DNA of 64,000 nt from an uncultured Verrucomicrobiae bacterium (GTDB taxonomy: Bacteria; Chlamydiota; Chlamydiia; Chlamydiales; Rhabdochlamydiaceae), in NCBI GenBank assembly GCA_963731265.1, contig CAVSUE010000001.1, positions 608,001 to 672,000 on the forward strand. The letters are read 5' to 3'. This document shows positions 31,200 to 33,515 of this stretch, one piece after another. The translations under genes and the position numbers were made by a program. Numbering within the stretch: the stretch's first letter is position 1; every line of letters begins with the position of its first letter. The notes under the pieces are model-generated. The model saw only the letters and a program-made list of their open reading frames with translations, did no database searches and was not told the DNA's origin.

Positions 31200-31280
31200 A
31201 TGAAGAAAGCTATGTTTGCAGCACTTCCACGTTCGACCATTCAGGCGCCGCCTCCCCCCCGTTTCCCCCTTCAGGGGTAA
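31200..31280 (+). CDS. Putative proline-rich leader peptide of proBA (MKKAMFAALPRSTIQAPPPPRFPLQG)
   Basis: Four consecutive Pro codons; stop 100 nt upstream of proB; hairpin abutting stop; alternative in-frame ATGs at 31188 and 31212. Confidence 0.7.
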   Translation: MKKAMFAALPRSTIQAPPPPRFPLQG

Positions 31281-31379
31281 TCACTTTTCTTATTAGTTCG
31301 TCCTTTTTGTCATTCTAAATTTTTAGAATCTATTACGCGATTATTTCGCATTTTCTAAGTGTATTTATTGGGCTTAACG

Positions 31380-32123
31380 ATGCAAAAATTAGTGATTAAA
31401 ATAGGTACAAGTACTTTAACGCAGGGCAGCGCCAAATTATCTCGCCGCACGATGCTCAGCCTTGTCGAACAGTGCGTCCATCTTCATGAAAAGGGAAAGC
31501 AGCTAGTTCTCGTCAGTTCCGGGGCCGTGGCAGCGGGTCGCGAGCACTTATCCATACAGGAACGTTCTTCTTCGGCCAAACAACTCTGCGCTTCGACGGG
31601 GCAGGTGATCTTGATGCAGATCTGGTTGGAACTGTTTTCATTATTTGATCTTCATGTGGGGCAAATGCTATTGGCCCGCCATGATTTTTCCGATTTGAAG
31701 AAGCAAAATGCTGCGAAGGAAACACTTGCTTCGATGCTGCAGCACAGCATCATACCGATCATCAATGAAAATGATCTGTGGGACAACGACAATCTTGCGG
31801 CAGTAGTCGCAAAACTCATTCAAGCCGATACCGTGATTTTATTGACCGATCAGGAAGGGCTCTATACTGCGGATCCGCGGGTTGACCCCCGGGCCACGCT
31901 TATCGCAAAGGTGGAACACATCGATGCAGAAATTTTGTCTTTTGCTACAGGTGCATCCTCCTCTTTAGGAATAGGAGGCATGGCTACAAAAATCGAAGCG
32001 GCCCAAGCGGCTGCGCAATTCGGTATTCGGACGATCATCGCGCCATCGTATCGTCCAAATGTTTTGATCGACCTTTTGGAAGGCAAACAAATCGGAACTG
32101 TTTTTATGGAGGATAAACGATGA
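31380..32123 (+). CDS. proB: Glutamate 5-kinase, no PUA domain
   Basis: VIKIGTSTL, VSSGAVAAG, PIINEND, DNDNLAA, GGMATKIEAA. Confidence 0.94.
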   Translation: MQKLVIKIGTSTLTQGSAKLSRRTMLSLVEQCVHLHEKGKQLVLVSSGAVAAGREHLSIQERSSSAKQLCASTGQVILMQIWLELFSLFDLHVGQMLLARHDFSDLKKQNAAKETLASMLQHSIIPIINENDLWDNDNLAAVVAKLIQADTVILLTDQEGLYTADPRVDPRATLIAKVEHIDAEILSFATGASSSLGIGGMATKIEAAQAAAQFGIRTIIAPSYRPNVLIDLLEGKQIGTVFMEDKR

Positions 32124-33352
32124 ATATCGGAAAAAATGCCAAGGACGCTTCCCGCTTGATGGCGTTGGCTTCGACAAAAACAAAAAATGATGTTCTTGCC
32201 ACTCTCGTTAGGAATTTAAAGACAGATCGTGAAAAGGTCCTCCAAGCAAATGGCCAAGATATTGAGGCGGCAAAAGAAAAAGGATTGAGTTCTGCATTGC
32301 TTGAACGCTTATCCTTGCGTTTGGAGTTCATTATTCACGATCTCGAGCAAGTGATCGCGCTTCCGGATCCGATTGGCGAAAGATTTGAAGAGAGAATTTT
32401 GCCGAATGGTATGAGCGCTGAAAAGCGTCGTACTCCGATTGGCGTCTTGGGCGTCATCTATGAATCCCGTCCCAACGTCACTCTCGATGTGAGCGCATTG
32501 TCGATCAAGTCGGGCAATTGCGCCATTTTGCGTGGGGGATCTGAAGTATTGCAGACAAATCGAATCTTAGTCGCCATGGTCCAGCACTCGCTGACATCGC
32601 ATGGCTTGCCCAGCGGCGTCATTCAATGCATCACAGATCCCGACCGTCAACGGGTCTATGAAATGCTCCGTATGGACAGTTACATCGACCTCATCATCCC
32701 GCGAGGAGGTGAAGAGTTGCAGAAATTTTGCCGCGAGAACAGCACGATACCCGTGCTTACCGGCGGAGTGGGAATTTGCCATCTTTTTGTCGACGCCTCA
32801 GCAAATGTGGAGCGCGCTGTAGAGGTCGTTGTCAATGCAAAGACCAGCAGGCCGACTGTATGCAACGCATTAGACACGCTGCTTGTCCATGCGGAAATCG
32901 CGCCCATTTTTATTCCTCAAGCCGTTGCGGCATTGGAAAAAAAAGGGGTCCGGTTTCGCATGGATGCAAAATCGTGGCCGCTTTGCCAAGGCGCTTCTTG
33001 TCAACGCGCCGAACCCGAAGATTTTGAAACGGAATGGATGAGCCTTGTCCTTGGGATCAAGATCGTCGAAAATTTAAGCGAGGCGATCGATCATATTCAG
33101 CAGCATAGCATGGGACACAGCGACGGTATTTTGACGGAAAACGAAAGACACGCAGAGCTTTTTGTCGAGCAAGTCGATTCTTCCGCTGTGTATGTCAATG
33201 CCTCGACCCGTTTTACCGACGGGGGACAGTTGGGGCTTGGCGCGGAGGTGGCCGTTAGCACACAGAAACTACATGCGCGCGGGCCTATTGGGCTTAAGGA
33301 ACTCACTTCGAGCAAATGGGTCGTCAGAGGGAGGTATCATGTTCGGAGTTGA
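32120..33352 (+). CDS. proA: Gamma-glutamyl phosphate reductase
   Basis: IYESRPNVT, LRGGSE, VCNALDTLL, VNASTRFTDG, STQKLHARGP. Confidence 0.96.
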   Translation: MNIGKNAKDASRLMALASTKTKNDVLATLVRNLKTDREKVLQANGQDIEAAKEKGLSSALLERLSLRLEFIIHDLEQVIALPDPIGERFEERILPNGMSAEKRRTPIGVLGVIYESRPNVTLDVSALSIKSGNCAILRGGSEVLQTNRILVAMVQHSLTSHGLPSGVIQCITDPDRQRVYEMLRMDSYIDLIIPRGGEELQKFCRENSTIPVLTGGVGICHLFVDASANVERAVEVVVNAKTSRPTVCNALDTLLVHAEIAPIFIPQAVAALEKKGVRFRMDAKSWPLCQGASCQRAEPEDFETEWMSLVLGIKIVENLSEAIDHIQQHSMGHSDGILTENERHAELFVEQVDSSAVYVNASTRFTDGGQLGLGAEVAVSTQKLHARGPIGLKELTSSKWVVRGRYHVRS

Positions 33353-33378
33353 ATATAATTGGGGTTCTCATCTATAAT
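33349..33378 (+). promoter_or_regulatory. Sigma70/66-type promoter for leader plus permease
   Basis: TTGAAT-18 nt-TATAAT just before the leader RBS. Confidence 0.6.
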
Positions 33379-33390
33379 CCATGGAGATAT

Positions 33391-33456
33391 ATGTTGTATT
33401 TTTTAAGTCATTCTTACTTCTCTCATCATCACCATCATGGCCTCCCCAGAGGCTAA
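33391..33456 (+). CDS. Putative histidine-rich leader peptide (MLYFLSHSYFSHHHHHGLPRG)
   Basis: GGAG RBS, five consecutive His codons, hairpin GCCTC-ccca-GAGGC abutting TAA, T8 run after. Confidence 0.78.
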   Translation: MLYFLSHSYFSHHHHHGLPRG

Positions 33457-33515
33457 ATCAATTTTTTTTCTCACATCTGTTTTCGCTTTTAAAAAAAAAT
33501 TAACGATGGTGTTTT

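Follow-up and report, generated by a model that had tools for sequence, protein, structure and literature searches.

Two leader reading frames at the proBA-permease locus

The stretch of 64,000 nucleotides (nt) analysed here, called the window below (contig CAVSUE010000001.1, positions 608,001 to 672,000 of the forward strand, assembly GCA_963731265.1), comes from an uncultured bacterium of the chlamydial family Rhabdochlamydiaceae, whose genome, designated G000, comprises contigs of 2.0 and 0.34 Mb with a G+C content of 46%. Close to the middle of the window, the proline synthesis genes proBA and a permease gene downstream of them are each preceded by a short open reading frame (sORF) with a run of codons for a single amino acid, i.e., proline ahead of proBA and histidine ahead of the permease. 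All coordinates are positions within the window on its forward strand, and the features of the locus are as follows.

31164..31192, forward: promoter-like site TTGAAC, 17 nt, TATGAT (consensus match only, 9/12)
31200..31280, forward: proline leader sORF of 26 codons, MKKAMFAALPRSTIQAPPPPRFPLQG, with its stop TAA at 31278-31280 (frame translation and conservation)
31248..31259, forward: four proline codons CCG CCT CCC CCC (sequence)
31266..31277, forward: hairpin H1 of the proline leader, CCCC 31266-31269 with GGGG 31274-31277, loop TTCA; four G-C pairs, 3' arm abutting the TAA
31281..31311, forward: T-rich, G-poor tract after the proline leader stop (sequence)
31312..31329, forward: second hairpin H2 of the proline leader, ATTCTAA with TTAGAAT; present in most, not all, proline leaders, with G:U pairs in two relatives
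31337..31356, forward: third small hairpin, GCGA with TCGC, then ATTTTCT; a weak terminator-like site, not conserved as such
31380..33352, forward: proB (short form without the PUA domain) and proA, by homology; the proB start is possibly a few codons upstream
33349..33378, forward: promoter-like site TTGAAT, 18 nt, TATAAT (consensus match only, 10/12), overlapping the end of proA, 12 nt ahead of the histidine leader ATG
33391..33456, forward: histidine leader sORF of 21 codons, MLYFLSHSYFSHHHHHGLPRG, with its stop TAA at 33454-33456 (frame translation; 8/8 close orthologous loci)
33424..33438, forward: five histidine codons (sequence)
33430..33436, forward: CACCATC within the histidine run, complementary to 33505-33511; proposed anti-start-region strand
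33438..33455, forward: hairpin H1 of the histidine leader, core GCCTC 33440-33444 with GAGGC 33449-33453; up to seven pairs, 3' end overlapping the TAA
33462..33469, forward: run of eight T, 6-8 nt past the hairpin
33491..33499, forward: run of nine A before the permease start region, pairing with the T-run in the minimum-energy fold
33505..33511, forward: GATGGTG, partner of 33430-33436, 4 nt ahead of the permease ATG
33516..34715, forward: permease of the aromatic/hydroxy amino acid (TyrP/araaP) family, by homology

Both sORFs are built on the same plan. Six codons separate the proline run from the stop, and the five codons that follow the histidine run hold the GCCTC and GAGGC arms; TCA and a T-rich, G-poor tract come directly after the TAA of the proline leader, and ATCAA and then eight T directly after that of the histidine leader. 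The initial annotation of this DNA, made from its letters alone, had described the two adjacent leaders as one architecture of cognate run, hairpin at the stop and T-rich stretch, and both the sequence and the conservation in relatives bear this out, including the (A)TCA between the TAA and the T-rich stretch in both leaders. Its description of the hairpin as 5 base pairs (bp) of GC ending at the TAA holds for the histidine leader, with a core of five pairs (up to seven, reaching into the TAA), but not for the proline leader, which has four G-C pairs. The -10 box of the promoter-like site ends 7 nt ahead of the proline leader ATG, and, given this box, the proline mini-gene may be leaderless.

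Conservation of the proline and histidine leaders

The proline leader was followed in 10 proB loci out of 41 related genomes and in 26 further, more distant proB loci out of 300 genomes of the order. A proline-rich sORF with the C-run/G-run hairpin and the stop precedes proB in nine of the former (two of the nine are weak), the single locus without it belonging to another family, and in eight of the latter. The C-run/G-run hairpin is kept in every proline leader found, with stems of three to four G-C pairs, and in many relatives the last proline codons themselves form its 5' arm. The second hairpin (TTCTAA...TTAGAA) and further variable hairpins occupy the approximately 100-150 nt between the leader stop and proB. 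A metagenome search using ProB alone gave no matches, and one using an alignment gave 80 distant proB loci whose identity did not exceed 49%, and no proline leader was seen in the 77 of these that were examined; three proline-rich sORFs upstream of distant metagenome proB genes look like chance and were rejected.

The proline leaders accompany mostly the short ProB without the PUA domain. The proB frame spans approximately 257-284 amino acids in six of the eight newly found loci with a leader and approximately 370-420 amino acids in 13 of the 18 loci without one (L180-L205, L001-L011). Immediately ahead of the proline leader are pncB and pncA, genes for the salvage of nicotinamide adenine dinucleotide (NAD), at 29077-31172 on the forward strand.

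The histidine leader was compared among eight close permease orthologues (at least 70% identity, one genus), and a histidine-rich sORF with the same hairpin is present upstream of all eight. The stop codon sits in the hairpin loop, not past the 3' arm, in three of these leaders, and thus it is the hairpin that is conserved and not the peptide tail. The consensus fold of the alignment keeps seven hairpin pairs with one-sided A-U/G:U and U:G/U-A changes. Three paralogues of the permease in its own genome have no such leader, and no histidine-run sORF was found at more distant homologues (L026-L047; filter for runs of at least three, five loci read by eye). Histidine as the permease substrate is suggested by the leader only. 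A partial second copy of the permease gene (37909-38559, forward strand), 3.8 kb past the full gene, comprises its 3' half and is 98% identical to residues 183-399; the same partial copy is present in the near relative G003.

The same plan elsewhere in the genome and the phylum

The full scan for leaders covered only the window's own genome, while relatives were examined locus by locus. Crude gene calls in this genome have 5089 short ORFs ahead of them, and only two of these hold a histidine run of at least three. The architecture scan, a check proposed with the initial annotation, considered sORFs of 10-45 codons beginning with ATG, 20-220 nt upstream of a long ORF, and also demanded both a -10-like box at a distance of 4-13 nt ahead of the sORF and, at the stop, a hairpin with an energy of -5 kcal/mol or lower. 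It was passed by 41 of 1319 such sORFs, and the threonine, histidine and proline leaders took the top ranks for residue enrichment. This ranking, together with the rarity of histidine runs, indicates that the two leaders are more than chance. Further leaders were found before amino-acid uptake genes of the same genome:

before an SDF-family (SstT-like) gene: threonine leader MYLVEHLSTTVRFSTTTGLRR
before an SNF/NSS-family gene: leucine leader MLKHIGISSSISLLLLSFQG
before one AGCS-family gene: alanine/serine leader MKHLNFFYTYSAASAFSAPQRCCN
before a second AGCS-family gene (AGCS2): lysine/arginine-rich leader ending in KSLKAAFKRK

These leaders have the same order of parts, and the amino acid of the leader matches the gene behind it for proline and proBA, histidine and the TyrP family, threonine and the SDF family, leucine and the SNF family, and alanine/serine and AGCS. 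The threonine leader is conserved in 11 of 12 orthologous loci, and nine further loci added five clear leaders and a degenerate one; the leucine leader is conserved in four of seven loci, two other families included, the alanine/serine-rich leader in six of ten and the leader ending in KRK in nine of 15 (eight flagged, one read by eye). The peptide outside the run and the hairpin is poorly conserved, whereas these two elements are retained, as is their position. A strict motif of the threonine hairpin occurs in 24 of 401 genomes sampled across the phylum, in four families (25 hits versus two for the reversed control), and all five new hits that were examined precede an SstT-like gene; the motif is absent from all 30 sampled genomes (approximately 1.0-1.4 Mb) of family f35. 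The sequences thus support one design reused for different amino acids within a chlamydial lineage, as the initial annotation had supposed.

Two more sORFs of the same build, one before the gene for an F-box-like protein and one before the gene for a protein of unknown function, are counted as candidates only. Of four related loci that were examined, three keep the leader of the F-box-like gene, its hairpin differing in sequence. The genome encodes 11 paralogues whose F-box-like match is weak (Pfam E = 4e-4), one at G000:C1:282345-283319 and the others at ten further sites. The paralogue that lies between the two AGCS genes is preceded by a leader sORF showing a stop-codon hairpin and a T-run, and the leader codons TTATTCCTT match the start region of this gene over 9 bp. 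At the SstT-like gene of locus L085 the leader retains the hairpin (with one G:U pair) and the T-rich tract, while the threonine run is lost (the peptide ends in NSFNCTGFGW); it may be a decayed or re-targeted sensor. Other run-containing sORFs were set aside since they precede unrelated genes or are repeats, i.e., an alanine run before cytochrome bd, arginine-run repeats before an rlmL-like gene and lpxB, and runs of asparagine, tyrosine, isoleucine and glycine.

Pairing of leader codons with the start region

In the minimum-energy fold of the histidine leader, CACCATC of the histidine run pairs with GATGGTG, and the resulting helix encloses the hairpin at the stop (z = -2.8). In the threonine leader, the Shine-Dalgarno (SD) region, CGTGGAGAA, is the pairing partner of TTCTCCACG, which covers the codons F-S-T immediately 5' of the hairpin. 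Across the 17 leaders of the threonine family, the mean duplex energy is -11.7 kcal/mol, compared with -8.1 kcal/mol after shuffling of the leader segment (p ≤ 0.045 in 7 of 17) and -8.7 for non-cognate pairs of leader and start region. Ten of the 17 form 7-10 contiguous pairs over the SD that end 2-16 nt before the hairpin (2-9 nt in eight of the ten). The complementarity comes with compensatory changes: at one position of the threonine helix, three loci have G-C, two have C-G and one has U-A, and in two loci the helix has been rewritten, to TTCTCTCC/GGAGAGAA in the first and to ATCCTCTTG/TAGGAGGAT in the second.

The histidine family has at least six contiguous pairs in seven of eight loci, with p ≤ 0.043 in four; 77.8% of the helix cells in its alignment are paired, and both helices together reach 86.4% versus 26-49% when the partners are slid. 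An 8-bp pairing of the CCTTCTC/GAGAAGG type was found in three of six alanine/serine orthologues. When leader segments of the own genome were ranked against 600 background windows, they fell within the top 1.7% for histidine, 3% for threonine, 4% for leucine, 2.2% for AGCS2 and 0.2% for the F-box-like gene. Pairing of the regulatory or adjacent codons with the SD or start region was therefore seen for the threonine, histidine and alanine/serine orthologues and for the own-genome leucine, AGCS2 and F-box-like genes, and not for proline. The support for the long-range helix comes from per-sequence analysis across related, non-independent genomes. A -10-like box, as a sequence match only, ends 5-8 nt ahead of the leader ATG in 14 of 17 threonine and three of eight histidine leaders.

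Proposed mechanism

We propose, at a probability of roughly 55%, that the transporter leaders are cis-acting amino-acid sensors working by translational attenuation, and that the proline leader shares the sensor half with them. Each sensor would be a tiny gene, placed at the 5' end of the mRNA or close to it, with codons for one amino acid in its last third, and scarcity of the aminoacyl-tRNA would stall the ribosome on the codons of this run. The stalled ribosome would cover a pyrimidine-rich stretch of the leader (histidine here; threonine, leucine, alanine/serine or lysine/arginine-rich elsewhere), which without the stall would pair with the SD/start region approximately 55-60 nt downstream. 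The stall would thus free the start region, and the transporter would be translated only under shortage. The distance of 4-6 codons from the run to the stop equals about half a ribosome footprint, and the strand would be re-exposed as the ribosome terminates. The leaders thus probably turn on their genes in response to a shortage of the cognate amino acid. The sORFs, their conservation, their fit to the gene behind them, the hairpin, the T-run and the complementarity with its compensatory changes are observed; the stalling, the sign of the regulation and the level at which it acts are what we infer here from the arrangement of the sequence. The pairing of the leader codons with the downstream start region is better supported as the switch of the transporter leaders than the ribosome-coupled terminator envisaged by the initial annotation.

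Several results weigh against this proposal. Folding and covariation analysis, which the initial annotation had suggested, recovered the hairpin at the stop in the threonine and histidine alignments; the column-based consensus folding of both recovered only this hairpin, and no pair changed on both sides. From locus to locus the long-range helix changes its register, and the genomes compared are relatives of one another. The observed pairing of the histidine alignment was reached by 59 of 500 shuffles, so this control was not convincingly exceeded. In the leucine and alanine/serine families, pairing is just as good for shuffled pyrimidine-rich leader segments as for the native ones, and base composition alone therefore explains their pairing energy. 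Complementarity to the start region shows no excess over the background of 600 windows for the own-genome alanine leader, which ranks at 42%, or the proline leader, which ranks at 53%. When a ribosome footprint was masked in equilibrium folds, the F-box-like gene alone showed a clear opening of the start region (from 0.31 to 0.72) and threonine a slight one (from 0.31 to 0.41), and the masking does not open the start region for histidine, leucine, alanine or proline. Finally, the hairpin and the T-run, the most constant parts of the leaders, have no necessary role in the model.

A much broader version appears doubtful to us. It would see a plug-and-play cassette of environmental chlamydiae (leaderless mini-gene, codon run, hairpin at the stop, U-run) recoded for at least six amino acids and wired to uptake, proline synthesis and host-interaction genes such as that for the F-box-like protein. 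The cassette would then be the main amino-acid-sensing network, replacing missing transcription factors, with the hairpin and U-run as an undescribed ribosome-gated device for pausing or termination.

The hairpin at the stop and alternative explanations

The order of hairpin, stop and T-run recurs in every leader family, and six of the eight own-genome leaders have a run of at least five T within 25 nt past the stop versus 13% of background windows. These features could mark a compact intrinsic terminator, or a strong pause, without an antiterminator, where the stalled ribosome covers the 5' arm and blocks termination directly; with the run 4-6 codons before the stop, a stalled ribosome would indeed reach this arm. 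A simple, permissive scan lists 33438-33455 as terminator-like, and one distant leucine leader has its T-run 3 nt past the stem. We consider this explanation unlikely, and the compact terminator of the initial annotation is not supported, since the T-run otherwise starts 4-10 nt after the stem (23 nt in the leucine leader), whereas canonical terminators need adjacency; a stable hairpin followed immediately by a U-tract was found for neither histidine nor threonine, the sole conserved hairpin lying 4-10 nt from the T-run. The stems of the proline family have just three to four G-C pairs, and the scan listing is weak evidence, with seven sites in total versus 3.9 expected. A ribosome at the stop codon melts the hairpin too, so the design alone cannot tell plenty from shortage, and the complementarity between leader and start region, with its compensatory changes, is left unexplained. 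The initial annotation saw no classical alternative antiterminator, and no mutually exclusive one was found here: there is no consistent partner in 16 proline leaders, and in 17 threonine leaders an erm-like 2:3 alternative between the 3' arm of the hairpin and the post-stop tract was rejected, with -2.4 versus -2.8 kcal/mol for shuffles.

The spacers between leader and gene invite another explanation, in which G-poor, C-/U-rich RNA from the leader to the start region serves as a loading site for Rho when the leader is read through and the downstream gene is untranslated, while stalling or the resulting translation keeps Rho off. The spacers contain 0-11% G versus 17.8% in background intergenic DNA, the threonine spacer has 28% C and not a single G over 47 nt, and Rho control by codon-dependent stalling is reported in the accessible part of a study on Chlamydia trachomatis (PMC7755916). 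On the other hand, the spacers are short (40-85 nt) and more U- than C-rich, the comparison of 3'-arm pairing given above yielded no structure through which stalling would hide the tract, and G-depletion is equally expected if the SD must be the sole purine-rich partner of the leader strand. We give primary control by Rho a low probability; Rho action might well follow secondarily from translational masking. It is quite improbable that a ribosome stalled near the 5' end merely shields the transcript from 5'-end-dependent decay, without any structural switch: the sORFs do start at or within a few nt of the predicted 5' end, and such a mode is described for erm leaders in the available portion of PMC5118997, but the hairpin, the T-run and the complementarity would have no explanation. 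That the sORFs are chance frames, or small proteins with a function of their own that do not regulate the downstream gene, is hardly credible. Nothing specific speaks for it except that many run-containing sORFs in the genome, such as those before cytochrome bd, lpxB and rlmL-like genes, clearly are chance; against it stand the fit between the enriched amino acid and the downstream gene in five families and the retention of run, hairpin and position in otherwise poorly conserved peptides.

In the translational attenuation that we favour, the hairpin and the T-run would be conserved accessory parts. Hairpin-stabilised pause sites such as the his pause have a geometry of stem, gap and U-run close to that of the leaders. 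This likeness of a stem, 4-10 nt and a U-run suggests pausing as a means to bring the first ribosome and RNA polymerase into step, and our best guess, by analogy, is that the hairpin and T-run would be a pause module holding RNA polymerase until the first ribosome arrives. The T-run as a general anti-SD element was rejected, as the energy between tract and start region is -7.5 versus -7.0 in the threonine family and not significant in the histidine family; it may act in this way in a few loci (L075, L085, L090 and the own leucine leader).

The output of the proline leader

The proline leader has the same sensor half as the transporter leaders, and its output half, with two or three further hairpins over approximately 100-150 nt, fits no mechanism tested. 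In the proline leaders, neither the ORF nor the tract after the stop pairs with the start region to an extent that is significant overall, and across 16 of them the location of the start region's best partner is inconsistent, two reaching p ≤ 0.02. Terminator-like hairpins are present in only four of nine proline leaders, and a downstream CCC partner for the G-run was seen by eye in three of 16, which is no enrichment. Polyproline stalls ribosomes intrinsically, and this may add a second input to the proline leader.

Relation to known systems

Like the classical his, thr, leu and trp attenuators, the leaders described here encode a peptide with a cognate codon run, and the hairpin after the run, whose 3' arm contains or adjoins the stop codon, could match the classical 1:2 pause hairpin. 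They differ in that no adjacent terminator of hairpin plus U-tract and no antiterminator was found for histidine and threonine, and in that their targets include transporters besides a biosynthetic operon. A comparison with Rfam gave no family match at the gathering threshold in the window and no leader family at E ≤ 1 in the five loci with the proline, histidine, leucine, threonine and alanine leaders. Attenuation of the erm type (ermC, ermB) involves four segments, an alternative 2:3 pairing and drug-dependent stalling. As in erm, stalling in the leader ORF is proposed here to free a sequestered start region, whereas the analogous 2:3 pairing of the hairpin 3' arm with the post-stop tract is without support. 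In Salmonella, consecutive proline codons of mgtL and mgtP sense proline or translation capacity and control Mg2+ transport and virulence genes via alternative stem-loops and Rho; unlike there, the target here is proBA itself.

The sensing principle is thus textbook, and the likely output, by analogy, is that of mycobacterial cysteine sORFs. For the leaderless polycysteine sORFs of mycobacteria, the accessible part of the report (bioRxiv 10.1101/834739) describes translational attenuation shown by mutagenesis. As presented there for Ms5788A, the regulatory codons at the 3' end of the sORF pair with the SD region of the next gene, several loci exist per genome, and a stalled ribosome blocks the duplex, with control at translation, which is what we propose for the chlamydial leaders too. 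The mycobacterial sORFs are leaderless, whereas those of the chlamydial leaders are predicted near the 5' end from -10-like boxes only. Set against that account, the present leaders belong to Chlamydiae, serve several amino acids instead of one and mostly uptake permeases, and have a duplex of 6-10 bp instead of a near-complete leader duplex, together with a G+C hairpin abutting the stop and a T-run; the mycobacterial system was tested by mutagenesis, and the chlamydial leaders are known here from sequence alone.

Within the phylum, candidate TrpL leaders of the trp operon with long leader ORFs of 40-59 amino acids (PMC3937554) and a YtgR-linked, Rho-linked attenuation at tryptophan codons (PMC7755916) are described for Chlamydiaceae in the accessible parts of these papers. 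They share the phylum and the sensing of an amino acid by a codon run; as far as these parts go, tryptophan and the trp operon are their sole subject, and the model is transcriptional or based on Rho. A 2010 survey, in its accessible part, lists predicted attenuators in Chlamydiae almost all without associated functions (PMC2965389). In the literature that we searched, chlamydial leader peptides were found described only for tryptophan in Chlamydiaceae, and the titles and abstracts of the top matches, subscription journals being outside the coverage, contained no proline leader before proBA and nothing on leader peptides before amino-acid permeases. What is new here is the number of amino acids that the leaders would sense, the predominance of transporters among the targets, the phylum and the unexplained conserved module of hairpin, stop and U-run.

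Chlamydiae have few transcription factors, and beyond tryptophan little is understood of how they sense the amino-acid supply within host cells. Leader-peptide switches forming a conserved family, if true, would be a simple answer to amino-acid sensing in environmental chlamydiae, covering at least five amino acids, mostly before uptake permeases, and kept across several families of the phylum. The leaders could then assign permease substrates that homology cannot resolve, i.e., histidine for the TyrP-family, threonine for the SstT-like and leucine for the NSS transporter. Likewise, translational attenuation by leader ORFs would extend from mycobacterial cysteine to another phylum and many amino acids, with a conserved module of hairpin, stop and U-run whose function lies beyond current models.

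Additional observations

A repeat encoding MRF[YH]S[RG]RRRQC..., with identical flanks, occurs before the rlmL-like gene and lpxB (G000:C1 near 1641100 and 1721950; G000:C2 near 331950) and looks like a dispersed repeat, not an arginine leader. Strong palindromes that read ...NPGLKAWD or ...KPRP up to a stop in one frame (C1:676850, 1019512, 536290; C2:84482, among others) are intergenic hairpins like repetitive extragenic palindromes (REP-like), which crowd scans for hairpins at sORF stops. The window also carries a transfer-messenger RNA (tmRNA) gene at 17493-17861 on the reverse strand (139 bits).

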